Virus record (IMG/VR): IMGVR_UViG_3300012953_000001
Location: 64,001 to 128,000 of that record
Reading direction: 5' to 3' (one strand)
DNA: 64,000 bases
Origin: a virus
The notes under the pieces were generated by a model. It did no database searches. It was not told the DNA's origin and was given only the letters and a program-made list of their open reading frames with translations. Of the stretch, positions 41,356 through 62,064 are shown in pieces (position 1 is the stretch's first letter; each line of letters begins with the position of its first letter). The position numbers and the translations under genes are program-made.

Positions 41356-42093
41356 CTACCTTGATTTACTAAGCGTAGTTAAGTAGCTACCACCTCGGGA
41401 AGGTCCCATGGTGTTTTGTGATTGGGGGCCAGCTTTCCAGGCGTTATAGCTATTTTTCGCCATCTTTCCGCCGTAATACATGCTCGCAGCGCCAGCGCCT
41501 GTCATACCGACTCGACCAGCCTTGCCCCAGCCACCCAGACTTTTCCAGGGGCTAGACTTGAAGCTCATGCCTCCAAGAGATCTATTCCAGGGCATGCTTC
41601 CGCTGACAGCCGAACGTGCTCGATTACTAAAGCCTGCGCGAGCAGTTTGTGCAGCTTGTTGGGCTCGTCCAAGGCTCTGTCGCTCCAACATTCCTTTGGC
41701 ACCTCGCTGTGCGTAGGTCAGCCCTTTGTACGCGCCTGTGCCCGCCTTCTGCGCTGTACTGATGCCCTTGATAGTGCGACCAGCCATGTACGCTTTACGG
41801 CCAGCATTTGCTGCGCGAGCAGCCAAGACTCCGCCCCTAACAAGTCCACCAGCAACATTTAATCCGGGGATGAACATTGTAGCGGTAAGAGCCGCATCTA
41901 ATGGGTTGTCCTTGATATAGTTACCCACACTCTTAATGCCACCCCACGCCTTACGGCCCACACGTCTAGCCCACTGCCAAGCGACCTTCTCCATATAAGG
42001 GTCGATAGCAACAAGTTCTTCAGCAAAGGAACGCTGCATTCTATTTCTGGCAGCTACTTTCACCAGTGCATATCTTAACTGTTGATTATCCAT
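41356..42093 (-). CDS. Basic KxA-motif protein (putative internal virion/ejection protein)
   Basis: LVKVA and MEKVA motifs, then a cationic Gly/Ala-rich body with hydrophobic stretches; C-terminal RGGSYLTTLSK. Confidence 0.6.
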   Translation of the reverse strand: MDNQQLRYALVKVAARNRMQRSFAEELVAIDPYMEKVAWQWARRVGRKAWGGIKSVGNYIKDNPLDAALTATMFIPGLNVAGGLVRGGVLAARAANAGRKAYMAGRTIKGISTAQKAGTGAYKGLTYAQRGAKGMLERQSLGRAQQAAQTARAGFSNRARSAVSGSMPWNRSLGGMSFKSSPWKSLGGWGKAGRVGMTGAGAASMYYGGKMAKNSYNAWKAGPQSQNTMGPSRGGSYLTTLSKSR

Positions 42094-42676
42094 TTTTTAC
42101 CTCTTCGCTGGGAAGGCCTGTTCCCCATCTTATAGGCCAAATACTTTTCGATAATAAGGCCCACCCGATTGGGGTCGAACTATCATACTTTGTTAATACA
42201 TCTTCGCAAGCTTCCCGTAAGCAACTAAACTCCTCAGAAGGACCCCAGTTGCCAATGTGGAAGTAAGAACCTGACTCAGACTGACAAAGACACATGGCGT
42301 GACCCATCAATTTACTATCACTCTCCCACGAAAAAATCCATATTACTGGGTTATATCTTTCTTGGATTGAGTTTGCGGCCCACACGCTAAAGTCATCACA
42401 GTCCAGAGATCCTTTAGGTTGAGTGTTACCGCTTTCTAACTCAGAAATGGCGTACTGCACCCAACCCGGTGACCCCACAGAGTCCCATAGCTCCTTCACC
42501 CCATCCTTGGTCCAAGTGAGAAGCTCCATCTTTTTTGAGGCCTCTTCCGTGGTTAAGTAGGGTCCAACAGCCATGCTCTTATACTTGTGATGCCAAATGA
42601 ACCGGTAAACACGGCTCCAAATACACCACCAGTATATTGCTACGACGTAGAATTTCTTTGCGAACCAAGCCTTCAT
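42086..42676 (-). CDS. Transglutaminase-like/papain-fold cysteine protease with an N-terminal hydrophobic segment
   Basis: LDCDDFSVWA (Cys), MGHAMCL (His) and FHIGNWG (third triad position); aromatic N-terminal helix. Confidence 0.65.
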   Translation of the reverse strand: MKAWFAKKFYVVAIYWWCIWSRVYRFIWHHKYKSMAVGPYLTTEEASKKMELLTWTKDGVKELWDSVGSPGWVQYAISELESGNTQPKGSLDCDDFSVWAANSIQERYNPVIWIFSWESDSKLMGHAMCLCQSESGSYFHIGNWGPSEEFSCLREACEDVLTKYDSSTPIGWALLSKSIWPIRWGTGLPSEEVKNG

Positions 42677-44100
42677 TAAACCACCTGATTACCGACAATT
42701 ACACCGGCCTTAGGTGCTTTTACCTTTGTCCCGTCTGTTACTCTCTTGGACTTCGCCAAAGCCGTTCTTGCCAAGGCAGACCCGGCTGCGGGTGCACCTG
42801 CTCCGCGTCTACCTCTCGTGCTCTTTAGGCCCTCATCTAGTTTGAACTGCCTTCTCACAGCCGAGGCGGATTGCTGTCCCTTGGCGTCTCTAAGAGCTTT
42901 ACCGAGACGAGACTTCTCATCAAGCTTCTTGATGTCCTTGCGGTCCTGTTTTAGCTGTTTTAGCTGTTTCGCTGTCCTAGAGCCTTTAGTTGCTCCTGTC
43001 ATAATATCCAAGTAGCTTCCGCCTCGGACTCCTGAGGACATGAGACCGCCTTTACCTTTAATCAAAGCAGAGGCTCCAGTATAACCTTTGTCGATTGCTT
43101 TTTTACCGGGACCCATCATGGACGCGGCTGCTGCGGGTATAGAGGAGAAACTAGCTCCAAGCGCGGCACCGCCGAGACCCATGTCTAAGCGTCTCGGGTC
43201 TACTAATGTTTCCCCAACGCTTTTCAAGGAATCCCACTTGCCTGGGTTTAGTGCGTAGCTTCCTCCGTAACCAGCAAGACCACCCTTGGCCCCGTAAGAC
43301 ATAAGCTTCTTACCTGAGCGAGCCAAATATCCCCCGGTTTGTGTCCAAGGCTTGTGAAGCTCATACCCCTTAGGGGCTCGGCCCTTAGCGAAAAATCCTC
43401 TAGGCCCCTTGATGAGTTGCCCAGTTTCCTTGTGTTTGTAAATGTTGCTCAGCCCACTGCCTCGCCCAAACAATTTTTGACGTACGCCCTCGCGCACAGG
43501 CTCGGTCCATCGGGCTGACCCCTTTGGAACGCTCGTTAAGGCTTCGCGTGTAAACGGTTGCATGGTCCTTGGGTCGATAAGCTTAGATGCCGCTCCACCC
43601 AGATCATCAGCTGCCTGTGGGGCTGCACGAGTAGCTCCGCTACGGGTTACCGCAGCCCTCGCTGCTGCACCGCCAGAACGAAGAGCGTTCCATCCAGCCA
43701 GTCCTGCTCTAGCCAACCAAGGCCAGACAGCTTCCTTCTCCATCAGAGCCAGCTTTTGCATCCCGGTCATTGGTACTAATGCAGAACCGACCTTAGGCAT
43801 ACCTGATCCCATACCACCCACTTGTTTAGCAGCAGCAACCCCTACAGGTTGCTTCTGTTGACGAGAGGCATTGGCAGTAAAACGCTTGATCAGCGATTTT
43901 CGCATAGCGCCTGCGGCCCAACCAGTCTGCATTTGTGCATTGTTAGACCCACCCTGGGTCGCGCCACCTGTAGGGTTAAGTGGTCCTGGCTCTGGAGCAG
44001 GAGCACCTGCTTGGCCACCAACGGCTGGTGCGGCTGCGATCTTTGCTGTGTACCGAAGAATCTCTAGAGCAGCGCCCTTATCAAAGTCTGTATTACGCAT
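42676..44100 (-). CDS. Basic KxA-motif protein (putative internal virion/ejection protein)
   Basis: AKIA, MQKLA and MEKEA motifs; Gly-zipper segments; RGGSYLDIM. Confidence 0.6.
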   Translation of the reverse strand: MRNTDFDKGAALEILRYTAKIAAAPAVGGQAGAPAPEPGPLNPTGGATQGGSNNAQMQTGWAAGAMRKSLIKRFTANASRQQKQPVGVAAAKQVGGMGSGMPKVGSALVPMTGMQKLALMEKEAVWPWLARAGLAGWNALRSGGAAARAAVTRSGATRAAPQAADDLGGAASKLIDPRTMQPFTREALTSVPKGSARWTEPVREGVRQKLFGRGSGLSNIYKHKETGQLIKGPRGFFAKGRAPKGYELHKPWTQTGGYLARSGKKLMSYGAKGGLAGYGGSYALNPGKWDSLKSVGETLVDPRRLDMGLGGAALGASFSSIPAAAASMMGPGKKAIDKGYTGASALIKGKGGLMSSGVRGGSYLDIMTGATKGSRTAKQLKQLKQDRKDIKKLDEKSRLGKALRDAKGQQSASAVRRQFKLDEGLKSTRGRRGAGAPAAGSALARTALAKSKRVTDGTKVKAPKAGVIVGNQVV

Positions 44101-46073
44101 TATAAAGTCCTCTTGGGTGCTGCCACGATATTGGGAGTTAAAATATCAAACGGGTCATCTGCACCAGATAGTATTGTCAGTAAATTGGTCGGCCCTTCGC
44201 TACTAGGCACAGTAATCCTGCGTCTGAGTGATAGCGGGGCGATAGATACTTCTACCTGTATCCCCTGCACTAAAGAGAACTCAACGTACCCGTTAGAATC
44301 AGTCTTATAAGTTCTCTGCGAGTCGAAAACGCCAGTCCCAGAAAATAATTCTGGTCGGTGCACTAGTCCGACATGAACTGTCGCATTCCTCACTGGTGTC
44401 CCGTCCATATGGTAAAGCTGTGCGAACAATGTGCACATGTCTGCGGGCGCGGCAGAGGCAGTTACTGTGGGAGAAAACTCCTCAGTTATTAGTTGAAATG
44501 CCTGCGTATCTGTCCCTACAGAAGGATCTGGAAGTGAGTCTTGTCCCGGAATACCTTTGAACTTTACTGGGCTTAGAAGGCTGTCTGCCTCCAAGGTGCT
44601 CGAAACCTCTACTGTCATTTCAAAGTTATTGGTTGTGTAGACAACCCCAGCCTTGGTTAAAGAGAAAACATACTTCCCTGGTGGCACTTCTAAACGTAAA
44701 AAGCCGGTAACATCAGTGACACCCTGCGTTATCTGCACACCAGCTTCAGAACTTACGGTTACTGTGGTTCCTATGTGCGGCCCGGTATTCGGAGCAGAAA
44801 GCTTCCCAACAGTAATTAAGATAGTCTCTTTGCCTACTGCGGGAGTAATCAAGTAATCAGTTACGTAAGCTTGTACATTGTTATTGAACCAAACAATGAA
44901 GACTTCCTGCGCGGTGTTAAACGTCAGGTCCTGGAGTACGTACCCACCATAGGCAGCAGAGTAAAATGCCTGCACAGAGGTTCCGTCTGAGCCGAGAGGA
45001 ATAATATTTCCTCCCTGTGAGCCAAACCCTGTGATGCCTAGCTTCGCCAAGAGACTAGCCGTCCCTGCTTGGAGATCTAATTGGCTAGAGTCTCCTACTG
45101 CCCCTGCTGTCGCATTAAATACCAAATTATTCGTGGACGACTCTTGATCAAGAGTAATACGGTCGCCTGCTGCACCGTCAGTAATCGTTGTCTCAACAAG
45201 AACCTTTAGCTCAACAAAGGTAACGGACTCGCTGCTCAACACATTGTTTGCTGCTGGGGGAGAAACGTCAGTAGCCTCTGAGAGGCCGGTAATAGCGGAG
45301 AAATTGCCCTGCATATTACTAAGTGTAATTGTAGAACTTGAGCCTAAGCTGTCAGTTACAATCTCAATCTCACCAGCAGCGTCACGGGCGTATGCACCTT
45401 TTAACTGTGCGTTAAGAGCCGCAAGGTACGCAGCCTGATTGTTTGCTACACCATCTAGGTCAATACTTCGTACTGTGCCCCCGTCAATGCTGTAGTCCGC
45501 TGTATCCCCAAGTGCGCCTGCTGCGTACGTTGCCATAGTTCCTGTGGCTACCGCAGGAGCACATAAAAAAGTAAGGGTCTGCGGTCCTGTCGCGTTCGTG
45601 TCCGGGAGGACTTGGAATGTCAAAAAGTCTCCATCATCAACGGAGAAAGTTGTTACTGATTGGCCCCCAGTAAACGACGCGTACGTCTTGTCCGCAAGGG
45701 ATACGCCAGAGCCGTTGTAGAGATGCGCAGTAATAATCTCGTTGGGACCGCCAACTATATTATCCTCTAATACAACGTCTACTTCATCCCCGATTGCAAA
45801 ATCAGAGATTGGGTTCTGCCCCACGTCTAGCGTGCCATGCAAAACAACAGAGTCATTATACTTGTAGAATACGTTATGCTGCCCCAGGGTAAGCGGGGTG
45901 TAGGGGTCACTTAGGAAAAGATTCGGGGCTTCGATGACTTGAGAAAAACTAAGCACAGCCACTTCCGAACCAGTAGCATCTAACACCTGCGCCTCTAATA
46001 ACCCGAGGTCAACTACTACTGATTGGCTATCGAAGAACGGTAGTGTCCTTGCTTTTTGTATCTGTGCTTTCAT
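44100..46073 (-). CDS. Virion structural protein (beta-rich, sheath-insert-like and carboxypeptidase-regulatory-like modules)
   Basis: 657 aa acidic, with YSIDGG...LAALNAQL...IEIVTDSLG, GVTDVTGFLRLEVPPGKY and TDSNGYVEFSLVQG. Confidence 0.6.
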   Translation of the reverse strand: MKAQIQKARTLPFFDSQSVVVDLGLLEAQVLDATGSEVAVLSFSQVIEAPNLFLSDPYTPLTLGQHNVFYKYNDSVVLHGTLDVGQNPISDFAIGDEVDVVLEDNIVGGPNEIITAHLYNGSGVSLADKTYASFTGGQSVTTFSVDDGDFLTFQVLPDTNATGPQTLTFLCAPAVATGTMATYAAGALGDTADYSIDGGTVRSIDLDGVANNQAAYLAALNAQLKGAYARDAAGEIEIVTDSLGSSSTITLSNMQGNFSAITGLSEATDVSPPAANNVLSSESVTFVELKVLVETTITDGAAGDRITLDQESSTNNLVFNATAGAVGDSSQLDLQAGTASLLAKLGITGFGSQGGNIIPLGSDGTSVQAFYSAAYGGYVLQDLTFNTAQEVFIVWFNNNVQAYVTDYLITPAVGKETILITVGKLSAPNTGPHIGTTVTVSSEAGVQITQGVTDVTGFLRLEVPPGKYVFSLTKAGVVYTTNNFEMTVEVSSTLEADSLLSPVKFKGIPGQDSLPDPSVGTDTQAFQLITEEFSPTVTASAAPADMCTLFAQLYHMDGTPVRNATVHVGLVHRPELFSGTGVFDSQRTYKTDSNGYVEFSLVQGIQVEVSIAPLSLRRRITVPSSEGPTNLLTILSGADDPFDILTPNIVAAPKRTL

Positions 46074-46090
46074 CTATTGGCCCACCTTAC

Positions 46091-46333
46091 TCAACTCTTT
46101 GGCTCGGAGATGCCAATCAGTTTTTTAACGTTGTCTATTACCACAACGCTATCATACCGCTTTTCCTTCTTCTCTGGACTACCTAGGCTACTTTCAAGCA
46201 CCGACTTTAAGAAAGTTCTTTCCGTTACCAAGCGGAGCTTCTCCGCTGTAACGTACTCCTTCACTTGATCCCTTAGTTTCTCTAGGACCTCTTTCTTATC
46301 TTCGGGCTTGTCAATAACACTCTCGATAGCCAT
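46091..46333 (-). CDS. Hypothetical protein
   Basis: 80-aa helical ORF with an upstream GGAG, co-oriented with neighbours. Confidence 0.55.
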   Translation of the reverse strand: MAIESVIDKPEDKKEVLEKLRDQVKEYVTAEKLRLVTERTFLKSVLESSLGSPEKKEKRYDSVVVIDNVKKLIGISEPKS

Positions 46334-46345
46334 GCCAGTGTCTCC

Positions 46346-47242
46346 TTAGTCTTTGAGCAACGCATAGCCACCAAGTCCAAGTGCCGCAGGAACAGCTACC
46401 GCTTTGGCGGTGTCCATCATCTTTTTACGCTTGGCCCAGTTAGAGGCGAGTCTAGTCGCTCCACCAAGAAGCGCCGCAGCACCACCACCCTCTAATGCGG
46501 CCTTAGCCACTTCGGGTCCGTAAGCTTTTAAGTAGTCCATCGGAGCATCTGCAAACGATTTGCCTGATCTCTTCAGTGCGCGAGCTTTCCGAAGAAACTC
46601 AACCTCTTGGGCTGATCTATCGAAGGCACCCGGCACGAAATCCTTGCCCTCTTTCTTGGCCTGCTCCTTGGCAATGCGGTTCGTGTTGTATTTCTTTCCT
46701 AGAGCCTTACGTGCAGCTAGTCCTTCGGCCCCCTCACCAGCAAGAGTACGTAACTGGCGAAGTCTGTTAAGACCCATACCAAGACCACCAACGCCGCCAG
46801 CGCCCGCTGCGGTTCTACCCACGCCTCCCCATAAACTAAATGGGTTTTTGAAGGCTTGCTTCTCCATCCGATCACCGTAAGTGTTTTCGTAGAGAACAGC
46901 CGATGCCTGGGCAAGCCCACTATGCACGTAATGTGCAGAACTCTTTTTTGCCATGAACGGCGCTGTAGGTGCAGCGAGGGGTGCAGCGAGGGGTGCAGCG
47001 GGAGGTCTTCGGGCCATTGAGCCCATCCCGAACGGTTGCCTACGGGGTTTAGGTGCCCTAAGTGCCCCTGGGCCCATCTGCTTCATATTGTTGATGGCCT
47101 TTGCCACGTTCGGTGAGGGTTTGCGAGCGGGCGCGGCTCCGTACTGGCCCAGAACCGCAACCTTCTCAAGCATTGAGGCTACGCCTGCCGCTTTTTCCAT
47201 ACTCTTCATCGAGGTATCTAATCGTTTTAAGTTGTCCATCAT
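46346..47242 (-). CDS. Basic KxA-motif protein with a C-terminal Gly-zipper helix
   Basis: MEKAA, LEKVA and MEKQA motifs; ends AVAVPAALGLGGYALLKD. Confidence 0.6.
   Translation of the reverse strand: MMDNLKRLDTSMKSMEKAAGVASMLEKVAVLGQYGAAPARKPSPNVAKAINNMKQMGPGALRAPKPRRQPFGMGSMARRPPAAPLAAPLAAPTAPFMAKKSSAHYVHSGLAQASAVLYENTYGDRMEKQAFKNPFSLWGGVGRTAAGAGGVGGLGMGLNRLRQLRTLAGEGAEGLAARKALGKKYNTNRIAKEQAKKEGKDFVPGAFDRSAQEVEFLRKARALKRSGKSFADAPMDYLKAYGPEVAKAALEGGGAAALLGGATRLASNWAKRKKMMDTAKAVAVPAALGLGGYALLKD
46968..47000. repeat. 12-bp tandem repeat (about 2.7 copies) encoding AAPLAAPLAAP
   Basis: GGTGCAGCGAGG repeated in frame within the 46346-47242 gene. Confidence 0.8.
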
Positions 47243-48112
47243 TTACTCCGTAAGATGCCTCTGAAGTTTCTTTTTAATAGTGTTCTTCAGGCGACTAACT
47301 TGGTAATCGGGAATTTTCATTGCACGAGCAATAGTTCCCGTAGAGGACGTTTGAGGTTTGCCGTGTCCGGTCAAATACTCATATACCTCTCGTTCATTAC
47401 CCGTTAGTTCATACTTAAATAGGCGCAAAACCTCTTCAGATTTTGAAGGTGTTAACGCATACGGGTCCTCTTCGAACCCTTGAGAGAGCAAGTCGTTCCG
47501 TAGCTCGGCTTCCATCCTTCCGGTTTCAGCCATTGACCACCCGAGTCGCTCAGAAATTTCTTTAGTCAGAGGTGTCCTACCAAGATCTTCGGTAAGTTCA
47601 TCTCTGGCAGTTGTGAACAACTTGATCTTATAAACCCGATTCTCGGGGATACGACCAATATTCTGGTTCTCAACAATAAATCGTTTGGCCTTGTCTAAAT
47701 AACGAAAGACATAGGTACCGAGAGACCCCTTAGAGGGATCATATGAGCGTAAGGCATCTACAAAGCGTAGCTGAAACTCTGACTCAATAGCTGAGTCGGG
47801 AATCATCTTTACCTTACCCTTGTAGACATTGACCTTAGACCTGATCATTGGACGGAAGCTTTTGAGGAGAGGTCGGAGGTCTTCCGGCCTCTCCCCATTG
47901 GCTTTCCAATTATTCCACATCGCAAGCTCTCGACTCTTCTTATCATCTAAGTTGTCTAGAGCATTGAATGTGGCAAGGTTAGTCTCCGTGGCTTCCTCAG
48001 CATCCCTGGTGTGCTGTTTTACGGATACAACTTTCCCATTAGTTCGCCGTGGGTGTGCTCTTACTTGAGTACTCCCTGCGTACTTGAGAAATTCGGATAC
48101 TGGATCAGCCAC
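47243..48112 (-). CDS. Sigma-70 family RNA polymerase sigma factor (SigB/FliA-like) with an atypical N-terminal tag
   Basis: Region 2 (LLKSFRPMI...FVDALRSYDPSKGSLGTYV), RIPE, region 3 (LGRTPLTKEISERLGWS) and region 4 (TIARAMKIPDYQVSRLKNTIKKKL). GTG 48112 is better spaced from AAAGGT than ATG 48121. Confidence 0.9.
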   Translation of the reverse strand: MADPVSEFLKYAGSTQVRAHPRRTNGKVVSVKQHTRDAEEATETNLATFNALDNLDDKKSRELAMWNNWKANGERPEDLRPLLKSFRPMIRSKVNVYKGKVKMIPDSAIESEFQLRFVDALRSYDPSKGSLGTYVFRYLDKAKRFIVENQNIGRIPENRVYKIKLFTTARDELTEDLGRTPLTKEISERLGWSMAETGRMEAELRNDLLSQGFEEDPYALTPSKSEEVLRLFKYELTGNEREVYEYLTGHGKPQTSSTGTIARAMKIPDYQVSRLKNTIKKKLQRHLTE

Positions 48113-48125
48113 GGACAACATACCT

Positions 48126-48818
48126 TTAGTCTAATGCTTTACCGATGCCATACGCGGTACCACCACCGATGAGACCTTGTCCCATTGGGCTTTTAGCACC
48201 TCGCCAAGCGGCCTTACCAGTTGCTTTTGCACCACGACCAGCAGCCTGCGCTCCCAAAGTACCGTAGTACTTGCCTTGGAATCCTCGCCACTTAGCCTGA
48301 TCGCCTACGGCCTTACCAGCACGCTGCAAAGCTCCACCGGCCTGACGCATCTTAGCCTTAGTAGCGCTAGCGCCTGCTTGACCCATTGCTTTGGTCTTAG
48401 CAGCACCAGCCTGTGCGCCACCCTTAGTTGCCTGCCAAGCCTTACTGACTCTAGCTGCACCAGCCTGCCCTGCGGAACGAGCCTTCAAGGCAGCAGCGAG
48501 ACCAGCTTTACGAGTCGCAGCTAAACCTGCAACAGCCTTTGCTCGGCCTGCGGCCATGGCTTTTCCACCAGCAGCCATGCCTCGTTGAGCCAGTGCGCTG
48601 GTGCCTCTTCCAAGACCCTTCCAAGCAGCAAGCTCGGCTCTACCGGCGCGTCCTGCACCGCTAGCAATAGCTTTACCAGCACGGCCAGCGAGTGCACCTG
48701 CACCACGAGCACCACGGCCAAGAGCCATAAGACCCGCAAGCGAAGCCTGCTTGTCCATGCCATGCGACGACTGCCGCAGGACTAATTCAAGATTGTGTTT
48801 ACGATTTGGTTCTAACAT
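48126..48818 (-). CDS. Ala/Gly/Lys/Arg-rich KxA-motif protein
   Basis: MDKQA, then low-complexity GKA/AGR repeats; C-terminal GLIGGGTAYGIG. Confidence 0.6.
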   Translation of the reverse strand: MLEPNRKHNLELVLRQSSHGMDKQASLAGLMALGRGARGAGALAGRAGKAIASGAGRAGRAELAAWKGLGRGTSALAQRGMAAGGKAMAAGRAKAVAGLAATRKAGLAAALKARSAGQAGAARVSKAWQATKGGAQAGAAKTKAMGQAGASATKAKMRQAGGALQRAGKAVGDQAKWRGFQGKYYGTLGAQAAGRGAKATGKAAWRGAKSPMGQGLIGGGTAYGIGKALD

Positions 48819-48847
48819 TGTTTCTAACCCCTTTTGGTTAATATAGA

Positions 48848-49186
48848 TTATTTGTTGGAGAGAAGTGCTCCTAAACCAGCAGCGCCAGCCGCCACACCGC
48901 CCCCAACCATGAGGGGCTTTTTGTGCTTCTTAAGCACGGAAGTCAATTTTGACTTAGGTAGCAGTCCTTTAGCTGCTGATCGAGATTTTAGCACCTTTGC
49001 TAATAAAGCGGCACCACCCACACCAGCGGCAGCACCTCCGATAATCTTCTTATGCTTTTTTAAGACCTCCAACAAGGACTTAAGCCTTGCGGATTTTGCG
49101 CCTTCCGAAGCGACTGTCTTCAGGGCGCTGCTTTTAGCGGCTAATTTAACCCGCAAAAGCTCTTTAGTATTACTGTTCATACACAT
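48848..49186 (-). CDS. Small basic protein with a duplicated VLKKHKK-Gly-zipper unit
   Basis: VLKKHKKIIGGAAAGVGGAALL and VLKKHKKPLMVGGGVAAGAAGLGALL; N-terminal RVKLAA; GGGAG RBS. Confidence 0.65.
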   Translation of the reverse strand: MCMNSNTKELLRVKLAAKSSALKTVASEGAKSARLKSLLEVLKKHKKIIGGAAAGVGGAALLAKVLKSRSAAKGLLPKSKLTSVLKKHKKPLMVGGGVAAGAAGLGALLSNK

Positions 49187-49247
49187 ACTCCCTTATCTAG
49201 TCACTACGGCCTGTATTATGCAACAATATGTCATGACAACATAGACC

Positions 49248-49484
49248 TTACCTTGATGCAGCAACAATCTTTTTCAATGAGATTCCTTTGGTGACCAACA
49301 ATACTCTCTTGTTAGCACCTACTCCGAAAGTCTCCTCTACCACATCATCGTTATTCCCCAAACTGATTGTATCCGAAGATACCTCATCTGTAGAACCATG
49401 GCTAATAGGCATTTTCGTCGGTTTCATAGCTTTGGCTAAGAGGTCAACTTTCTCATTATCATCGGTAATACTGTTATCTTCCAT
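49248..49484 (-). CDS. Hypothetical protein
   Basis: 78-aa co-oriented ORF filling the gap downstream of the hub gene. Confidence 0.5.
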   Translation of the reverse strand: MEDNSITDDNEKVDLLAKAMKPTKMPISHGSTDEVSSDTISLGNNDDVVEETFGVGANKRVLLVTKGISLKKIVAASR

Positions 49485-49495
49485 GTTGTGTAGCC

Positions 49496-52400
49496 TTACT
49501 CAGAGGATTTAGGGGGTTTGTGATCATACCCTTTTAGTTCTGCTCGCTTCTTTTCGCCAGCATCGTCGTCCATTTCTTCAACCAGACTGCCCCCGACATC
49601 TCGGAACCCTTGTTTTCTTAACCCAGCCAAGTACTTTCGCACACGATTATAGCGGTGCCACCTGGGGTCTATATCTTTATCGAGATCTCTAGGGTTCATT
49701 GGGTCCTTTGCCAGTACCGGCAAAATCGTTGGGACAATCTCTTTTCCTTCCCAATCATTCATCTGCGTATAAGGGCCAAACGCATCTCCATGGAAGCCCC
49801 GAGTAGGTATTCCTTGGCGATAATCGTCGTCCACAAACGCCTGTTGGTCGTATACTTTAGGGGCGAAGCCTGGGTTCATATTACCCATGACTTCTACCAT
49901 GTTAGCGTATTTTCTATCAATATAACCATCGATGAATAAATCAGTCGCTGCCCCTATCTCTTTTAGGGCTAACCATGTATCCGCAAGCTGGTCCGCAGCA
50001 GCCTCAGTTGTTTTCGCTGCTTGGGTAAGGTCTTCGGGGATGCGTAACTCAGTGTACTCAACCCCGCCGCCTCTATCGATTCCTGAGTCGGGCATCTTGA
50101 AAGGAACGGAAACAGTGGCGATACCACTCTCATTGCCACTAATCTCCGCGCCAGTGGTTACGCTGCGGGTAACAGGCTTTGGTTTATCTGCCCCAGGCCG
50201 GAACATGATCGGTGGGTTGTCCAGCACAGACTCGCACCCATACATGGGCATGTAGTACTTGGTACCGATGCTGCCTGGATGATAGATCGGAGAAAGCCAG
50301 GGTGGCATAAGGGTTGATTCAAAAGTAAAGCTAACCTTGCCTACAGCGGGATAGGATACATACCGATAAACATCGACCTCAACGGCATTGTAGCCAGACC
50401 CGTCTATGGCTGAAGCGTTTGGTTTTCCGTCAGCGCCAAGCAGTACGCGTGTTCCAGCGTTGTCATCCCCTTGGGGGGCTTTATTCGAGAAGTTATAATT
50501 ACTGCCTGTTTTACGGGCTTTAATTAGATATCGTCGGCCCTTCTTATACTCATTAGGACCTAAGACACGATTTGCTGCATCAGGCGATGATTGAATAACC
50601 ACGCCCCCGGGAACATCTGGATTAGTATTAGTAATAAAAGCCGTGTGTGGTTTACCGTCTTTAGGCGTAACTGGCTTTTTACCATGCCGCGTGTAGGATC
50701 TCTCAGTAGTGATCTTGCCATCCTTGGTGTCACCAAATAATCCTGCGTCTTCCCTGTGCCCACGGACTTTTATCAATTGAATAAGTGTCTGTGCGCCACC
50801 AGAGACATCGATTGTATGAACGATCTCTGCGATCTGTCCGACGTAGTGCGTTCCTTTAGGTGGGGCAGAGAGATTAACCGTATCTTTGCCTCTGATCTTA
50901 TCCTTGTTGTCTCCCTCGCCACCAACCGCATGAAGAATTCGACTGTCTTGCCTAACTGGATCTAACACAAGGCATGGCATCCCAGGGACAAGCTGTGGTG
51001 AATACCTAGCTGTGATCGCCATAGTCCTTGTGCCGTATCTCTGGGCAAAGAACATGTAGTTCGCCGCTCTTTGTAGATGCGGTTGTGGTGAGAACTTTGC
51101 CTCCCCTGATACAGACCCTTTGTCAAAGCCCTGCAAAGACCCCTTCTCTTCTTTCCACTTCTTCTTGGCCTCTTTCATTTCCTTCTTATGCATCTTCTTG
51201 AAAACGTCTCCGTCCCCAAGACCCATGATGCTAGGAATGATGCCCGTGTACTTCTCGTGCTTCATAACGAAGCCGCCGCCTTTTTTAACGGCCTGTGCGC
51301 AGTCTGTTACTGTAGGGCCTGCCAACATTTCCGCATTAGGTGAAAAGTAGCAATCCTTCTTGTTTCTTCCGCTCGAAGTCTTTCCATGAAGCCATAGTCG
51401 AGTAATCTCACTCATCCAATTTCGACTAAAGCGAATTGCCTGGATGTGGTCTGGAAACAAGACATTGCACCTTGGCGGGGGGCACATGTACACGTCCGGG
51501 TGGAAATAGGTAGTGTAGAGTCTGTCTCTAAGCTTTACCTGCTCTCGCTTAGGCACAACAGTTCTACCAGTAGCGGACCCAATGCCTTTCAAGTAGCACT
51601 CAAGCTTACGACGTATGTAAAAAAGGTTGTCCGAGTCGTGCTTGAGCTTGGCCATATTCTTATTTACTGCCGCGTAGTCATTTCCATGCGCGGCCTGCGC
51701 TCCCAAAAGTTGGGAGGCACGTATCCTAGCTTCCGCTAGACATTTATAGGCTTGCTGAATTCTATCCCCACGCTTTCTTAGCGTCTTGTCTCCTGTAGTG
51801 GCAGCTTTTTCATTTAGCTCCACTTTGATGGCCTGCCCCTTCAGGAAGTAAGGGTCTTTGGTAATGTCTGTAATGTCTGTTCGATCAGTTCCGCTAAGAC
51901 CACCTGGGTTAGACATGATGCCTGTGCCTGTATTGGTCTCATCAAACTCTTTGTGCTTGTCAGATCTTAGTTTCCCATCTTCCGCACGTTTGTACGTGTC
52001 GTTGGCGATCTGAGAGGACTCCCCAGGCTTTCGGTCGATTGTTCGACGATCCTTAAGAGCGTCTGATGTCTGCTTATTTCCTAGAGAGTACGTCTTTTTA
52101 GCGGCCTTCTCGTCAGCACTTAGCTTCCCGTTGTGCGTAAACTTCGCCTTGCCGCTCAGAACATATTCCGTGGTAATTACCGCAGAGTCAGAAAAGTAAG
52201 GGGGTGCAAGCTGTGAGTGCCATGTGTGGTAAATCTTACCGCATAGCATGTTTATGAACTGCATAAAGGTCGCAGTGTACTTCACCTGCTTGGATACTTT
52301 TCTCAAGTAACGCTTAAACGACTTACTGTTCGTAAACGTAGCGGAAGTATCGTCGTCTGTTGACGCCCCAATCTGCCTAGTCAGTTTTAGACGTATCTCT

Positions 52401-53101
52401 GCCTGACTAAGAAAGTCATTACACCCATGAAACTTCTTTTTAGCATCAGGAGAGTAACAACCGGTCGCTGCCTCAAGTACGGAAAAGATACCACCCATTA
52501 ACCCTGGGACATTGGGCATCGCTGAGGGCTTTGCCTGTAGTAATTTAATCAGGTCCCCAGAGCTATCAACCTTACTCTTTCCTCTGTAAAGCTGAGTCGC
52601 GCCCGAGAACACTGCTGTCTTATAGGAGTTGAACACGCTGGAACGCTTCTTACCCCAGTAGACTCGACAGTTGTCCCAGTAGGATGTGTGGTCTTGGCAT
52701 GCCAGTATGATGTCGCGTCGGCCACCTATCTTTGAAAAAGAGTAGCCCATGACTTCACCGACAAATAGCAACTTCCAGTTGTGCCAGTTGTCCTTATCTC
52801 GCAACAGGGTGGCGACACCCTTTTCCTTCGCCTTAGCGAGGTCTTCACCAGACTCTTGCCAATTAGTTTTTGTGGCATCTTTGCCTCGATAAGTACCAAG
52901 CTCCCAGCGAGAATCGAAGTAGAACACATGCACAAGCGTTCTTGGGAGTAAACTATGTACCTCATCACAGCTAGGAATAGTAATCGTAGCTGTGGCAGGC
53001 TGATTCACCCCACACGAGAGCTTCAAAGAGGTAACATCTACCTCAATACCCTCCATAAACAAGCGGACATCTAGCCGCCTTGCGTGTGTAGTTGACTCCA
53101 T
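49496..53101 (-). CDS. Baseplate hub protein (gp27/Mu gp44-like) with long insertions
   Basis: VRLFMEGIEV...PATATITIP...LLPRTLVHVF...LFVGEVMG...LACQD and PQLVPGMPCLV are hub-type beta motifs; 1201 aa. Confidence 0.65.
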   Translation of the reverse strand: MESTTHARRLDVRLFMEGIEVDVTSLKLSCGVNQPATATITIPSCDEVHSLLPRTLVHVFYFDSRWELGTYRGKDATKTNWQESGEDLAKAKEKGVATLLRDKDNWHNWKLLFVGEVMGYSFSKIGGRRDIILACQDHTSYWDNCRVYWGKKRSSVFNSYKTAVFSGATQLYRGKSKVDSSGDLIKLLQAKPSAMPNVPGLMGGIFSVLEAATGCYSPDAKKKFHGCNDFLSQAEIRLKLTRQIGASTDDDTSATFTNSKSFKRYLRKVSKQVKYTATFMQFINMLCGKIYHTWHSQLAPPYFSDSAVITTEYVLSGKAKFTHNGKLSADEKAAKKTYSLGNKQTSDALKDRRTIDRKPGESSQIANDTYKRAEDGKLRSDKHKEFDETNTGTGIMSNPGGLSGTDRTDITDITKDPYFLKGQAIKVELNEKAATTGDKTLRKRGDRIQQAYKCLAEARIRASQLLGAQAAHGNDYAAVNKNMAKLKHDSDNLFYIRRKLECYLKGIGSATGRTVVPKREQVKLRDRLYTTYFHPDVYMCPPPRCNVLFPDHIQAIRFSRNWMSEITRLWLHGKTSSGRNKKDCYFSPNAEMLAGPTVTDCAQAVKKGGGFVMKHEKYTGIIPSIMGLGDGDVFKKMHKKEMKEAKKKWKEEKGSLQGFDKGSVSGEAKFSPQPHLQRAANYMFFAQRYGTRTMAITARYSPQLVPGMPCLVLDPVRQDSRILHAVGGEGDNKDKIRGKDTVNLSAPPKGTHYVGQIAEIVHTIDVSGGAQTLIQLIKVRGHREDAGLFGDTKDGKITTERSYTRHGKKPVTPKDGKPHTAFITNTNPDVPGGVVIQSSPDAANRVLGPNEYKKGRRYLIKARKTGSNYNFSNKAPQGDDNAGTRVLLGADGKPNASAIDGSGYNAVEVDVYRYVSYPAVGKVSFTFESTLMPPWLSPIYHPGSIGTKYYMPMYGCESVLDNPPIMFRPGADKPKPVTRSVTTGAEISGNESGIATVSVPFKMPDSGIDRGGGVEYTELRIPEDLTQAAKTTEAAADQLADTWLALKEIGAATDLFIDGYIDRKYANMVEVMGNMNPGFAPKVYDQQAFVDDDYRQGIPTRGFHGDAFGPYTQMNDWEGKEIVPTILPVLAKDPMNPRDLDKDIDPRWHRYNRVRKYLAGLRKQGFRDVGGSLVEEMDDDAGEKKRAELKGYDHKPPKSSE

Positions 53102-55381: not shown

Positions 55382-55384
55382 TAT

Positions 55385-55597
55385 TTACTCCTCAGAAGTA
55401 AGCTGCATCGCCCTAAAAGCAGACCCACCTAACGATGGTCCGTCTTTGCCAAACGTATCACTGGTAATATTATCAACCGGCTCTACGGCTTGGGATACTT
55501 CCTCAGGAATATATTGTTGGTTGCGTTGGATCCCTACGCCGCCCTGAATATTTTCCATCTCATCTCGCATAGCGATGAGAGTTTTTAGATCAAGCAT
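55385..55597 (-). CDS. Small protein with a degenerate leader (MRDEMENI)
   Basis: The N-terminus parallels MRDELEKIA of 58016-58810. Confidence 0.5.
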   Translation of the reverse strand: MLDLKTLIAMRDEMENIQGGVGIQRNQQYIPEEVSQAVEPVDNITSDTFGKDGPSLGGSAFRAMQLTSEE

Positions 55598-55710
55598 ATC
55601 AGTTTCCGACTGTTACAAGCACAAGCATGATTGCGGCGTGTACTGAATAAGACATAAAAAGGAACTTATAGAACAGCACATCGTCTGAGCGTCTTCGGTT
55701 CATAATAAAG

Positions 55711-57132: not shown

Positions 57133-57153
57133 CTCTTTGTCCTCCGATAGTTA

Positions 57154-57336
57154 CTAAGCGTTACGCTCTTCCTGAACCTGCTTACGCAACTCTTTGCACT
57201 TAGTCGCAACCGTTTGTAGGACTTTTCGCACTCTTCCGCCAGCAGCATTGTTACCGTCTCCATGCTTGTTGGCATCAACAAGGGATTCGGCTAATACATG
57301 AATCATGTCTTCCATCTGTTTTTCTACGCTCTTCAT
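57154..57336 (-). CDS. Histone H1-like (Hc1-family) small DNA-binding protein
   Basis: DANKHGDGNNAAGGRVRKVLQ...KELRKQVQE matches the Hc1 core GNKAAxxRxR; AGGAG RBS. Confidence 0.75.
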   Translation of the reverse strand: MKSVEKQMEDMIHVLAESLVDANKHGDGNNAAGGRVRKVLQTVATKCKELRKQVQEERNA

Positions 57337-57337
57337 A

Positions 57338-58006
57338 CTATCCTCCTATTTTCGTGTTAGGCATTCGAGCAAAACCAATTAACCTAGTTTCTCTATCAAG
57401 ATCGTGGGTTAATCGTTTTACGTGGGAGGGAAATCTCCCAACGTTTCCTTCTATTGTTTCTATCACACCGTGCTGATAATTCTCAATAATTCCAATGTGG
57501 CCTTGCCAAGACCCAGGCTTTCCTCGATCCCAGCATACGATATCGCCTGCTGCTGGTATCGTTACCTCAGACCCCGCTTCTTTGATATACTTGTACAGCG
57601 CTTTCGCTCCGTGACTAGTTTTGAAGGGAAGGTCAACGCCGAGACTATCCGCTGCAACCATACAGCAGTAACTAACGAAACTAGCACACCAAGCACCATC
57701 ATCATCAGGATTGCCGTCGTCAGGAATTCCTTTATAGCGAGCGATATGCTCCCCAGAGTTGTTACCACCAATTTCACCATTGCCGATCTCCTTGATAGCT
57801 GTTTCTAAAGCCATGAGACCGAGATTACTTGTGGGACCACTATTACCAAACATATCTAATAATAATGACTGCTGGGTTTGTGGGCCGCAGTAACCATCAA
57901 CAGACAAGCCCTTGCTTTCCTGCCAATGTTTAACGAGATGCATTATCTGCTCTTGGGTAAACAGCCCAAGCTCGATTTGGTGTTTATTATATGATTCTGC
58001 GCTCAT
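57338..58006 (-). CDS. Modular endolysin: N-terminal PG-binding domain plus CHAP amidase/peptidase
   Basis: VKHWQESKGLSVDGYCGPQT (PG_binding_1); AWCASFVSY, GHIGII and TIEGN (CHAP motifs). Confidence 0.9.
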   Translation of the reverse strand: MSAESYNKHQIELGLFTQEQIMHLVKHWQESKGLSVDGYCGPQTQQSLLLDMFGNSGPTSNLGLMALETAIKEIGNGEIGGNNSGEHIARYKGIPDDGNPDDDGAWCASFVSYCCMVAADSLGVDLPFKTSHGAKALYKYIKEAGSEVTIPAAGDIVCWDRGKPGSWQGHIGIIENYQHGVIETIEGNVGRFPSHVKRLTHDLDRETRLIGFARMPNTKIGG

Positions 58007-58015
58007 ACGTATCCT

Positions 58016-58810
58016 TTAAAAATTCATCCTGAATAAGTTGCCCTGCCCAGTGGGGCTAAATGGCAATACGCCTGTATTCTTTTGTCCAAAAGGGTTGAAC
58101 TTTTGTCCAGCCCTAGGGGCTCTTGGAGTAGCCGGTGGCTTAGCCGGTCTTGTGATGCCTGAATTTGGGTACATGGGCGTTCTCGCCCTCATCAAACTGT
58201 TTGGCCCTGCGGCACTAGTCGCATTGGGTGACGGGGGCGTAGGCATCTTGGGGATCTTCAGCTTTAGCTTCGAGACAAGCGAAAGATTTTTACTCCAAGG
58301 GTGGGGTCCAGCCCTTACCGGAGTATGCGTTGGTCCCGTTGGTCTATTGAGTACGTTTGGTGCTGACTTACCTACCACTCTAGTTGGTTGACTGTATCCC
58401 CCAGGGGTAGTCTTGGTCCCAGATAAGGGTGGGGAAAGCATGGAGCCCTGTAGCAACTCCCCAGGACCACGCATACCAACTGGTTTAGATGAGTCCATGT
58501 ACCTACTCTGCCTATTAGTAGCTACTGCTTTTGCTTTTTGGTGCTTAGCTTGGATCTTATTCTGGATCCCTGTCCCTAATGCACCACCCTTACTACCGTA
58601 ATTGCCTGGAGCTTTAGGCATGTCAAATGCTTTGCCTCCGGGATGCGGCTTAGGGTTCTTAGTGCCATCCTTTACCACAGGTCTTGGGCGAGCTTTTCTT
58701 GGGGAATACGCGACCTTCTCCAACAGACCGAGGACATAATTGTCCGCAATCTTGGCTACAGCTATTTTTTCAAGCTCATCCCGCATTGACCTAAGAATAG
58801 ACACGTTCAT
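58016..58810 (-). CDS. Pro/Lys-rich disordered KxA-motif protein
   Basis: MRDELEKIAVAKIADNYVLGLLEKVA gives three motifs in 35 aa; the remainder is low complexity. Confidence 0.6.
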   Translation of the reverse strand: MNVSILRSMRDELEKIAVAKIADNYVLGLLEKVAYSPRKARPRPVVKDGTKNPKPHPGGKAFDMPKAPGNYGSKGGALGTGIQNKIQAKHQKAKAVATNRQSRYMDSSKPVGMRGPGELLQGSMLSPPLSGTKTTPGGYSQPTRVVGKSAPNVLNRPTGPTHTPVRAGPHPWSKNLSLVSKLKLKIPKMPTPPSPNATSAAGPNSLMRARTPMYPNSGITRPAKPPATPRAPRAGQKFNPFGQKNTGVLPFSPTGQGNLFRMNF

Positions 58811-58815
58811 TGCAA

Positions 58816-59733
58816 TTAACCCTTTTGCATTTTTCGGGCTAATTCAAGCAGTTTATCCTGAACACCCTTCTTACCGCCCAACTCACCACGAGTGCTTAGT
58901 GGAACCGAGATAGACCCGTCTCGCTTCATACGGTCAATCGCTTTATCTCCAAAGCGCTTTCTCCAAGCCTTCTCCATTGCGGGAGACAGCTTCGAAGCCG
59001 ATGTGTCTGGCATAAAGAACGCGCCCATTGGGTTTCTTTTGCCTCGCTTCGGTTGCATATTAATAATGTCTTTCGCCCCCATCATCTTATGCAGTCTTCG
59101 TCTACCAAAGAAGCCAAGGGTTGGAGTATCTTTAATGCCCTTCTTCAAGGCTGATACGGCTAACATCTGTGGCCCCATCCCCACTAATTTTGCCTTGAGC
59201 ATCGGGCTCAACGTGGACTCGCCCTTTCTAGCAGCCTTAGCCCCCAACGCAGCGGCAGCAACATTACCAGAAGCCCCAGAGAGATAAGTCGTGTAAGCCC
59301 ACAACAGATCCCTTCGCGCCTTCTTGTATGTTTTTGGTGCAATACCTTTGAGCTTCTTTAGAGCCTTAAGTCCATGGTACGTGGCCAAGAATTCTTCTGC
59401 CAGTCTGGGTGCTTCCCCTGCGGCTTGAACTGCGCCATCTTGAACCATGTGTTTTCGTAGTTCTTTCTTACTTGGGGCCTTTCCAACGCCACGAGAATAC
59501 CGACGATACTTGTTAATTAGTTGAGAGACCCCTGGGCCTGCTCCATAACCAAGCATCCGAAGCTTTCGAACAGTTTTGCTTGAGCCTCTTAACGTCTTTG
59601 CATGCCCAAGCTCATGTGCAAGGATAGATGCAGGCGCTCTATGAGGAGTGCCTTTTCGTACAAGAGTCTCTAGCCCTCTACCCATCATCTGTTTTAGTGC
59701 GCTCTTCGCAGCATACTTCTCTAATGCGTTCAT
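58816..59733 (-). CDS. Zincin metallopeptidase (YugP/Zn_peptidase_2-like) with a MNALEKYAAK leader
   Basis: ILAHELGHA, LAEEFLAT and KARRDLLWAYTTYL parallel YugP AHEVGHA / VEFDAS / ARKVLxAAALTYV. Confidence 0.65.
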   Translation of the reverse strand: MNALEKYAAKSALKQMMGRGLETLVRKGTPHRAPASILAHELGHAKTLRGSSKTVRKLRMLGYGAGPGVSQLINKYRRYSRGVGKAPSKKELRKHMVQDGAVQAAGEAPRLAEEFLATYHGLKALKKLKGIAPKTYKKARRDLLWAYTTYLSGASGNVAAAALGAKAARKGESTLSPMLKAKLVGMGPQMLAVSALKKGIKDTPTLGFFGRRRLHKMMGAKDIINMQPKRGKRNPMGAFFMPDTSASKLSPAMEKAWRKRFGDKAIDRMKRDGSISVPLSTRGELGGKKGVQDKLLELARKMQKG

Positions 59734-60281
59734 TAAAATGTCCCCTGTATATTACCGGTAAAGTAGGGTTTTCGTTGGTTCCGACCTGCTCCTACTGGCA
59801 ACCGCGCCCCAATATTACCACGAATATTCTTTGATAATCTTCCGCCCCAACCCATGTTTAAGGTGCTTGGTCGTCCACCCGACAAGGTGGTCCCAACGCT
59901 AAGTGGACCGGCTTTCACGCCTAAGTTAGTCATAGACTTCTTCGGCATTACATCTCGCCAAGTCATTCCGACCGGCGCTCCGCTTCTGGCTAAACTTCGA
60001 TTGATAGAGAGACGCTGCAAGTTATCAGTTGCGCCCTGACCCCTAGCCATAATGCCTTGTAATCCCTTAGTAGGTCTTTCCATTTTGCTAAGAGAGGTCA
60101 TCGGGTTGCTTGAATGAGAAGCTGTCACCTTAACGGGTGACTTAGAGTACGCCTTGCCAATCCCAGAAAGGGTGGCCCCAACAGACGAACTAACTGTTGG
60201 CTTAGCCAAAATCTTCTTAGCTATCTCGGCTAACTTGGTAGTTAGCTTTCGCTTGGACGCGTATTTCTCTAAGGCGTTCAC
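59733..60281 (-). CDS. Basic protein with a (M)NALEKYASK leader
   Basis: GTG 60281 with AAAGGGG upstream, just after the previous stop at 60284; in frame with the 60341 ORF. Confidence 0.6.
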   Translation of the reverse strand: MNALEKYASKRKLTTKLAEIAKKILAKPTVSSSVGATLSGIGKAYSKSPVKVTASHSSNPMTSLSKMERPTKGLQGIMARGQGATDNLQRLSINRSLARSGAPVGMTWRDVMPKKSMTNLGVKAGPLSVGTTLSGGRPSTLNMGWGGRLSKNIRGNIGARLPVGAGRNQRKPYFTGNIQGTF

Positions 60282-60283
60282 GG

Positions 60284-60916
60284 TTATGACCCCTTTACCC
60301 ATTTCTGGTTGTCTTTGTCTTTCGTCTTGCTTGGGCTCCACTTGACCTTATCCGCCCAATAAGCCGCACTCAAACGACCCTTGGAAATGTTCTTGCCGTG
60401 GCGGGACTTAAACGCCTTGCGTTGACCAGCGGTCTGGTTGGTCTTCACGCCCTGCTGCCCAAAGCGGATAGTCTTTACTTGGTCACCCTCTTTAGCAACA
60501 ACGATGTGAGACTTAGTAGGGTGATTAGGTGTGCGCTTAGGCTTGTTGTAGCCAGAAACACCAGCACGTTCTAGCCGTGGGTCTCTCGAAGCGGCAATCT
60601 TAGCCCAAGCCTTCTTGGTCTTCTCGTCTTTAGGGACCACTCTCTCACCCTTATGCACACGAGCGTATGGCTTGCCCTTCTTGTCGGTCAAATAGCCATC
60701 CTTCTTCACGGGTCCGCCCTTGGAATAACCAGCTAGTCCGCTACCCTTCATCATCCGTTGGGTGAAATTGGAGTTCCCCATCATGGCGATTTTCAGCTTG
60801 TCACTGACAGCCTGAAGACGTTCGGCTTGACTTTTATGCATCTTGGAAGCCCCGTGAAGTTCCTTAACAATCTTCTTGAGCTTCTTCTTAGCGGCATATT
60901 TCTCTAGCGATCTCAT
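60284..60916 (-). CDS. Modular basic protein: MRSLEKYAAK leader, GG...HKGERV module and RFGQQG...SAAYWA domain
   Basis: ATG 60916 overlaps the previous TGA (ATGA). The C-terminal DPRLERAGVSGYNKPKRTPNHPTKSH...RFGQQG...RH...SAAYWA domain is one I recognise as a standalone small protein in marine phages. Confidence 0.7.
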   Translation of the reverse strand: MRSLEKYAAKKKLKKIVKELHGASKMHKSQAERLQAVSDKLKIAMMGNSNFTQRMMKGSGLAGYSKGGPVKKDGYLTDKKGKPYARVHKGERVVPKDEKTKKAWAKIAASRDPRLERAGVSGYNKPKRTPNHPTKSHIVVAKEGDQVKTIRFGQQGVKTNQTAGQRKAFKSRHGKNISKGRLSAAYWADKVKWSPSKTKDKDNQKWVKGS

Positions 60917-62064
60917 ATAGACCACCGGTCATTCTTTAGGCCTTCCTTCGTTCTCGGCGTAAGGTTTTGCCTATTGATCTGGGGTGTTGGGTAATACTCT
61001 CGGTATGGCATGGTTCCTCCGGAAGGAGTAGTCTTGCCAGTCTTACCGCCTAATCCGCCTTTGGCTTTAGGAGATTTGAGGAAAGCGCCCTTTGCTGCCT
61101 TAAGCCTATCGGTGAGACGGTTCTTGTCCCATGCTTTTTTGGCTTCCCAGCCCAGTACCCCTCCAGCAGCAGCGATTGCTGGTTTAGAGTTAACAAGCCT
61201 TGCAGCCATGCCACCCATTCTTCCGTAGTTTCTTCCAGCACGAGCAGCGAAAGTAGCCCCTCTGTTACCCCAAGTGGTAACAGGTGCTTTGATCCCAGTG
61301 CGTCCTCGCTTGAATCCCTCTTGCAAGCCTTTGCCAGCAGCCTGGGGGATTTGGCGGAGTCCAGTGGCCCCTGAGCGAACAGCAGCCTTTAGTCCTCTCC
61401 CTAATAAAGCCAAGTTTGCTGTCTTCACAGCGTCAACGCTCCCAGCCTTGCTCAACATAGTTAAGTAGGATCCTCCACGGACTTGCGAAGGGGGCGTAGG
61501 CGGCTTTATTGTTTTCGCCGCCGCGCTCAATGCCCCAGATTGCGCCTTATGTATCCAGCTACTCTTAACCTTTATTGGTTTGCCTGTGGTGTCAGGTTGT
61601 CCATTGCTTCCTTTAGGTAATTTGTATGCACCATAAGAGGACGCTTGCAGCGTGAGCGGGTGACCGCCCTGGGCGATTTTGCGTAATGCTGAATTTAGTT
61701 TCACTTTAGCTCCTGGAAAGACTGCGTCTTTGACCGGGTTTGGGTGCTCCCAGACCCTCTTCAGGGTTTTCTGGTAGCGCCCTTCTGGTTTTCTTGGTGT
61801 AGAGGATATTCCGCCACCACCTTTCATAATATCCAGGTAACTTCCCCCACGCGCCTGCCCACGTTGCGCACCACCGCTGCTCCCTTTGGAAGCTGAGGCT
61901 ACCGCCCTACTTAAGATCTTTGACGTGTCTTTTGTCTCTGGGTACTTCATTGGAGCGCCAGAGTACGGGTCTAACCCTGACTGCCTAAAAATTTCGAAGT
62001 CAGACTTGGCTAGCTTCTCAAAAGCATCGTTAATATATGCTAAGTAATACTGCTTAGTACTCAT
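60913..62064 (-). CDS. Basic KxA-motif protein with two RGGSYL motifs
   Basis: FEKLA, LRKIA and VKTA motifs; RGGSYLDIM and RGGSYLTML. Confidence 0.6.
   Translation of the reverse strand: MSTKQYYLAYINDAFEKLAKSDFEIFRQSGLDPYSGAPMKYPETKDTSKILSRAVASASKGSSGGAQRGQARGGSYLDIMKGGGGISSTPRKPEGRYQKTLKRVWEHPNPVKDAVFPGAKVKLNSALRKIAQGGHPLTLQASSYGAYKLPKGSNGQPDTTGKPIKVKSSWIHKAQSGALSAAAKTIKPPTPPSQVRGGSYLTMLSKAGSVDAVKTANLALLGRGLKAAVRSGATGLRQIPQAAGKGLQEGFKRGRTGIKAPVTTWGNRGATFAARAGRNYGRMGGMAARLVNSKPAIAAAGGVLGWEAKKAWDKNRLTDRLKAAKGAFLKSPKAKGGLGGKTGKTTPSGGTMPYREYYPTPQINRQNLTPRTKEGLKNDRWSI

Follow-up and report, generated by a model that had tools for sequence, protein, structure and literature searches.

Why do a series of strongly basic proteins with little else in common carry the same five-residue sequence, often close to their N-termini? 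The question is raised by a stretch of 64,000 nucleotides (hereafter the window), bases 64001-128000 of a complete 178,429-bp marine phage record with direct terminal repeats in IMG/VR (IMGVR_UViG_3300012953_000001). A first-pass annotation had listed 12 matches to a strict motif, [LMF][ED]KxA, in nine mutually dissimilar basic proteins at positions 41356-62064 of the window, and had proposed, as a candidate new system, that the motif marks ejected virion cargo for packaging, for a maturation protease, or for both. We put at roughly 60% the probability that the motif is the site of the phage's own prohead protease, an enzyme of the T4 gp21 type, and that the leader carrying it is a removable targeting signal on head cargo resembling the T4 capsid-targeting sequence (CTS). 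To call this a new system is too strong: the arrangement is a variant of the known T4 gp21/CTS mechanism with a different motif, and it is found throughout the genome and across the clade.

The strict motif was searched in translated long open reading frames (ORFs), and expected counts were obtained from shuffles of each protein's own sequence. All 12 listed matches are present, with a thirteenth (FDKGA in the protein at 42676-44100), and the nine carriers of the region, whose isoelectric points (pI) are 10.4-11.9, thus hold 13 copies against 0.29 expected and a maximum of 4 in 20,000 shuffles. The looser versions reported alongside, FLKYAG in a sigma factor and VKLAA in a 112-residue protein, are also there. 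Genome-wide, 28 strict matches were observed versus 4.5 +/- 2.1 expected, 21 of them starting in the first 40 residues (0.83 expected), and the enrichment is unchanged with a corrected gene set. In the same N-terminal interval a looser pattern, hydrophobic-x-K-x-A, occurs 47 times versus 13.4 expected, and 28 times versus 3.2 when A, S or G follows. Control motifs (the reversed motif, R for K, and G or S for A) stay near expectation. The proteins are K- and A-rich, as had been cautioned from the start, but the per-protein shuffles and the flat controls exclude composition as the cause. Glutamate at P4 of the leaders is 7-fold enriched, and the conserved determinants of the motif are nevertheless the lysine and the alanine, the glutamate being only a preference.

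Two further parts of the first-pass annotation fared less well. The lack of strict matches in tail and fibre proteins is real (zero in about 11,600 residues) but carries no weight, because these proteins are Lys-poor and 0.43 copies would be expected, so that zero has a probability of 0.66. Nor is the motif a trait of 41356-62064. The tagged set comprises about 25 very basic, unrelated proteins genome-wide, eleven of them in the window with the sigma factor included, and about half are encoded outside that region.

The clearest form of the leader is M-N-A-L-E-K-Y-A-A-K, continuing K/R-K-L, with 8 residues before the putative cut. MNALEKYA or a near copy forms the start of eight proteins in the genome, three of them in the window, and a G-rich, Shine-Dalgarno-like run lies 6-10 nt upstream of all eight starts. 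As in the CTS type, a short common N-terminal peptide is thus found on otherwise unrelated small basic proteins. The claimed dissimilarity of the carriers was borne out by a self-BLAST of the proteome, which gave a single match, 28 residues spanning a leader; the carriers are thus no recent paralogues. Each synonymous position varies among the MNALEKYA copies, and selection therefore acts on the peptide. What is new here is that a changeable family of basic proteins carries a nearly identical leader. It is extremely improbable that composition, recent paralogy or a nucleotide-level signal where genes begin (a translation enhancer, for instance) produced the whole pattern: codons of the leader, at the 5' end of the genes, are rich in A and T, but synonymous sites vary, no paralogy extends beyond the leader, and the motif is also found internally and in orthologues with different codons. 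One leader locus has an unusual layout. At genome positions 17865-18446 on the minus strand (window coordinates -46135 to -45554), a single open frame has MNALEKYA at residues 1 and 58, each copy with its own Shine-Dalgarno-like run, and encodes either one protein with two tags or genes nested in the same frame.

Between about 8.7 and 131 kb of the genome, most of the minus strand codes for virion proteins. Encoded on that strand outside the window are the large terminase, a 2,090-residue fused beta-beta' RNA polymerase, an SNF2-type helicase and the enzyme that would read the motif:

Genome 25605-27290, minus strand, outside the window: head-maturation protease; the PHROG 'head maturation protease' (E 1.8e-9) is its sole family match.

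No Pfam family, Peptidase_S77 included, was matched by this protein at E <= 0.01, and a phmmer search against the PDB found no gp21. The AlphaFold model of its catalytic domain aligns with T4 gp21 (5JBL) at a VIA Z of 12.7 and a root-mean-square deviation of 2.7 over 147 of 164 residues, with a Foldseek probability of 1.00; against herpesvirus proteases Z is 5-6.4. As modelled, the domain has the gp21/assemblin fold. More than 1,300 homologues were found at E < 1e-5, and a family alignment was made from 26 diverse members. In this alignment H104 and S160 are invariant and are candidate catalytic residues; K29 and A31 are likewise invariant, and K229/A231 and K483/A485 nearly so. In the AlphaFold model the K-x-A sites sit in linkers of low confidence that border the well-folded catalytic domain at both ends. 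Bacillus phage G gp19 retains GLVKTA-A before its catalytic domain and ILEKVA-S after it. The T4 prohead protease trims itself at both ends. Such self-trimming is typical of the protease class, as in SPN3US (PMC10052503).

The family alignment also bears on where the cut would fall. The residue before the lysine varies among the flanking sites of the protease (V, T, E, D), and the glutamate that the first-pass annotation had built into its motif is not conserved there; a cut after Glu, as in T4, was rejected on this ground. The cut is placed after the alanine because Lys and Ala are conserved and are spaced like P3 and P1 of known rules (L/I-x-E in T4, A-x-E in SPN3US, V/L-x-A in herpesviruses). 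Judged from these sequences, the scissile bond likely follows Ala in hydrophobic(P5)-Glu/x(P4)-Lys(P3)-x(P2)-Ala(P1), usually with Ala, Ser or Gly next. As a separate observation on this family, the homologues P0051, P0064, P0081, P0096, P0097, P0099, P0103 and P0116 are 750-950 residues long and contain Hint/intein and LAGLIDADG homing-endonuclease Pfam domains, which are inteins within the capsid protease gene.

Capsid and scaffold proteins, where it had been suggested that the motif be sought, have it as well. Two acidic scaffold-like proteins adjoining the protease gene hold 2-3 copies each of [VIL]EK[TLV]A, and a single K-x-A lies at residues 25-27 of the capsid protein:

Genome 21616-22821, minus strand, outside the window: capsid protein, 401 residues; matches gp226 of Salmonella phage Arash (E 8e-36).

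Residues 25-30 of the capsid protein read L[VT]KEA-G in both Arash and Vibrio phage D69. Gene calls by longest ORF are unreliable at genome positions 21000-23850, where the capsid gene and three neighbours are overlain by long wrong-strand ORFs (544 residues on the plus strand). The N-terminus of the SNF2 helicase reads ...YLIKKA-A. Among orthologue pairs, the lysine of the motif is kept in 77% and the alanine in 74%, versus 48-49% for other Lys and Ala residues of the same proteins, and the few matches in non-structural proteins are not retained in orthologues. A homologue of one window protein (P0124, related to the 305-residue protein at 58816-59733) has the leader, then a 170-residue insert, then a second MNALEKHAAK directly before the conserved domain; it looks like a polyprotein, as would be expected of a tag at which modules are cut apart. 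By comparison of sequences, then, the proposal of a maturation-protease signal is well supported: by the scaffold-like and capsid proteins, the flanks of the protease, the orthologues and the two-tag homologue.

In the mechanism that we favor, the gp21-type prohead protease of the phage would recognise Lys-x-Ala and cut after Ala. The N-terminal leader would bring each basic protein into the core of the assembling prohead, as the T4 CTS does, and the protease would then remove it while degrading the scaffold and trimming the capsid protein; the mature basic proteins would remain with the DNA and exit together with it on infection. We infer the exact scissile bond and the cleavage, packaging and ejection of the tagged proteins. 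The packaging-signal, virion-cargo and ejection parts draw on analogy with T4 and on virion mass spectrometry (MS) of Arash, which detects RNA polymerase, sigma factor and helicase among 116 proteins (PMC10585845), a list that is not very specific evidence. The Arash paper and its supplement, which holds annotation only, contain neither cleavage data nor a list of peptides (PMC10585845). A more ambitious proposal, to which we would give slightly less than even odds, is that the leader, 8-13 residues of M-N-A-L-E-K-Y-A-A-K, is a portable capsid-targeting signal, cut after Lys-x-Ala by a gp21-fold protease, that loads an interchangeable arsenal of about 25 proteins, including the sigma factor, the SNF2 helicase and an HExxH enzyme, for injection.

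Several observations weigh against a cleaved leader. The window sites often have a bulky or charged residue after Ala (W, V, F, Y or K), whereas Ala or Ser is preferred elsewhere, and the fused RNA polymerase of the phage has no N-terminal site. The Arash MS was fully tryptic and covered 100% of several motif-rich head proteins, in a sample of doubtful purity (PMC10585845). Conservation continues past the putative cut (A-K-K/R-K-L), which means that the leader may have a role beyond marking a cut, or may stay uncut, and in the AlphaFold model of the HExxH protein the leader lies within one continuous helix, residues 3-28, and does not form a detached peptide. These last two points are also what favors an uncleaved docking or structural helix, kept on the mature protein and binding DNA, the portal, the inner wall of the capsid or other cargo. 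We regard such a helix as improbable, as it fails to explain the conserved K-x-A that flanks the protease's catalytic domain on both sides, the up to 8 repeats in acidic scaffold-like proteins, or the sole K-x-A of the capsid protein and the inter-module place of the site in the two-tag homologue.

The motif could alternatively be a cleavage site only, on a leader without a targeting role, with the basic proteins entering the prohead by charge or by binding scaffold or DNA. The generic sites of scaffold, protease and capsid protein require just K and A, and several window proteins have sites deep inside (120-126 residues in) that look more like a propeptide boundary than a leader. A cut site alone would not need eight unrelated proteins to have M-N-A-L-E-K-Y-A-A-K-K/R-K-L in common at the exact N-terminus, however, nor would the same leader be expected to recur on non-orthologous proteins of relatives, and we consider this alternative unlikely, if less far-fetched than the uncleaved helix. 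Under the favored reading of a targeting leader that is then removed, the window encodes the following tagged proteins:

41356..42093, minus strand: basic protein, 245 residues, pI 11.3; N-terminal sites LVKVA (nt 42052-42066) and MEKVA (nt 41980-41994).
42676..44100, minus strand: basic Gly/Ala-rich protein, 474 residues, pI 10.8; FDKGA (44071-44085), MQKLA (43747-43761) and MEKEA (43729-43743).
46346..47242, minus strand: basic protein, 298 residues, pI 10.4; strict sites MEKAA (47186-47200), LEKVA (47156-47170) and MEKQA (46853-46867).
47243..48121, minus strand: phage sigma factor, 292 residues; FLKYA-G (48077-48091); PHROG sigma factor match, E 1.3e-11.
48126..48818, minus strand: very basic Ala/Gly-rich protein, 230 residues, pI 11.9; MDKQA-S at residues 21-26 (48744-48758).
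48848..49186, minus strand: basic protein, 112 residues; loose site only, VKLA-A at residues 13-17.
58016..58810, minus strand: basic Pro-rich protein, 264 residues, pI 11.3; LEKIA (58760-58774) and LEKVA (58709-58723).
58816..59733, minus strand: basic protein, 305 residues; starts MNALEKYAAK, site at 59710-59724; HExxH formed by H40, E41 and H44.
59733..60281, minus strand: basic protein; likely start GTG at 60281, read (M)NALEKYASK; site at 60258-60272.
60284..60916, minus strand: Lys-rich basic protein; likely start ATG at 60916, read MRSLEKYAAKKK; site at 60893-60907.
60913..62064, minus strand: basic protein, 383 residues, pI 10.6; FEKLA at residues 15-19 (62008-62022).

PHROGs and Pfam searches put names on almost none of the basic proteins. 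Three of those listed start with the leader. For 59733..60281 the longest ORF extends to 60341, and the GTG at 60281 has a G-rich, Shine-Dalgarno-like run upstream and a 4-nt overlap with the upstream stop, an overlap also found for the ATG at 60916. The C-terminal domain of 60284..60916 matches phrog_7595 and phrog_220 (minor head protein / DNA pilot), and its orthologue in the relative G004 retains MNALEKYAA.

In a second class of window proteins the site lies 13-35 residues in; additional sites at residues 114-126 of three of them point to long multi-site propeptides. FDKGA stands at residue 6 of 42676..44100, whose sites imply a putative multi-site propeptide of about 124 residues; its orthologues retain [FI]DKGA and [LV]EK[RE]A. 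Both sites of the 245-residue protein at 41356..42093 are retained in six orthologues despite diverging flanks, the residue-126 site of 46346..47242 is retained as LEKRA in genome G001, and the orthologue of 48126..48818 in L012 has LEKQA at the equivalent place. The sigma factor has a non-sigma N-terminal extension of about 55 residues that holds FLKYA-G at residues 11-16; FLK[YF]A is retained in relatives, and the extension is absent from the Arash sigma factor, gp10. The 112-residue protein at 48848..49186 contains two Gly/Ala-rich hydrophobic segments. No orthologue of 58016..58810 was found in two complete relatives.

The 305-residue protein combines the leader with a candidate active site. 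Its HExxH is invariant in 9 homologues, with conserved downstream Glu residues, and homologues of 32-49% identity retain the N-terminal K-x-A. A pattern scan of IMG/VR found no relatives of this protein. The match to the Pfam family Zn_peptidase_2 is weak (E 0.042) and fails the cut-off, and a fold search with the helical AlphaFold model found no PDB match at E <= 0.001. Judging from its sequence, the protein may be a packaged zinc peptidase.

Megablast against phage records found no close DNA relative of the region. The sigma gene is common to six IMG/VR contigs at 68-88% identity, and an exact leader was found in only seven IMG/VR contigs by a degenerate DNA pattern search. The complete relatives G001 and G004 hold 23 and 21 copies of the motif versus 5.0 and 4.95 expected, with 10 and 14 N-terminal matches versus 0.9, and each has its own clusters of MNxLEKYAAK proteins, in which the same leader stands on non-orthologous proteins. 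Several window cargo genes have no orthologue that could be found even in close complete relatives, which indicates that the cargo set turns over quickly while the leader persists. Close relatives also differ in their cargo genes at T4-type internal protein (IP) loci.

The broader K-x-A code is also present in Arash and, very densely, in D69, where eight K-x-A-[SA] sites lie in one acidic protein and the RNA polymerase begins with MPKKA-S. Arash (OQ632216) and the Vibrio phages D69, D148 and D181 have a homologous protease (37-41% identity) and the same code in head proteins. Unlike the phage studied here, Arash lacks the MNALEKYA leader and encodes few basic proteins tagged at the N-terminus, and its sigma factor and helicase are without tagged extensions; no Arash homologue was found for any of the basic proteins of the window. 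The capsid protein of phage G has no K-x-A (PDB 6WKK holds 280 of 282 residues) and so gives no test of cleavage, and the phage G multi-omics paper contains no cleavage mapping.

Compared with T4 gp21 and the CTS of IPI-III, Alt, gp67 and gp68, the arrangement has the same protease fold, a short common leader on small basic, putatively internal proteins that are otherwise unrelated, and the same site in scaffold, capsid protein and the protease itself. It differs in that the putative site is Lys-x-Ala, where T4 has Leu/Ile-x-Glu, and in that Pfam S77 is unmatched by sequence; the tagged proteins, among them a sigma factor and an SNF2 helicase, are far more numerous, and 8 residues of the leader precede the putative cut. 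In phiKZ (protease gp175) and SPN3US (gp245) a gp21-type protease likewise acts on many internal head proteins, propeptides are short (20-24 residues) or long and multi-site (111-254 residues), the protease trims itself and the virion carries its own RNA polymerase (PMC10052503). Cleavage there follows A/S/G-x-E and about 80% of SPN3US head proteins are uncut (PMC10052503), whereas K and A are the determinants here. Herpesvirus assemblin has a related fold class, and its M/R sites, (V/L)-x-A|S, also place Ala at P1 before a small residue, a likeness clearest in the K-x-A-S of D69. P3 is Val or Leu there and Lys here, the structural likeness is far weaker than to gp21, and the herpesvirus substrates are the protease and scaffold only, with no cargo family. 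For this protease class, the only published rules that we found are L/I-x-E and A/S/G-x-E, and no description of a Lys-x-Ala code was found in the literature. Three things set the arrangement apart from known systems: its Lys-x-Ala motif, how many proteins are tagged, and the presence of transcription proteins among them.

If the cut were confirmed, the specificity known for capsid proteases of the T4/herpes type would widen from Glu at P1 to include a Lys(P3)/Ala(P1) rule, which, if true, would be common to a large and mostly uncultured phage group; some phages with homologues of the protease are cultured. The motif would then let head proteins and their mature ends be predicted from sequence, and the short natural leader could be put to use, like the T4 CTS, for filling these capsids with foreign proteins. 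A tagged sigma factor together with a tagged helicase suggests that the proteins for early transcription are delivered as a complete kit along with the DNA.

Some other genes of the window deserve mention. The near match IEKVA, which had been raised as a caveat, is present at 1133-1414 on the plus strand, in a small acidic protein amid non-structural genes that contains E-A-I-E-K-V-A-S; its orthologues in two complete relatives retain [IML]EKVAS with different flanks, and this conserved site of the head-protease type thus stands in a protein that is not obviously structural. A CHAP-domain peptidoglycan hydrolase with a PG-binding motif, lacking an N-terminal site of its own, is encoded amid the tagged genes at 57338-58006 (minus strand). 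The 1,201-residue protein at 49496-53101 has the N-terminal motif LRLFMEGIEVD in common with Arash gp8, which is annotated both as structural and as a cell wall hydrolase. At 62503-63975, continuing to genome position 130663, a 1,386-residue basic protein has a Ser/Gly/Gln/Tyr-rich N-terminus like that of Arash gp4, which ranks second in abundance in the virion MS of that phage (PMC10585845).

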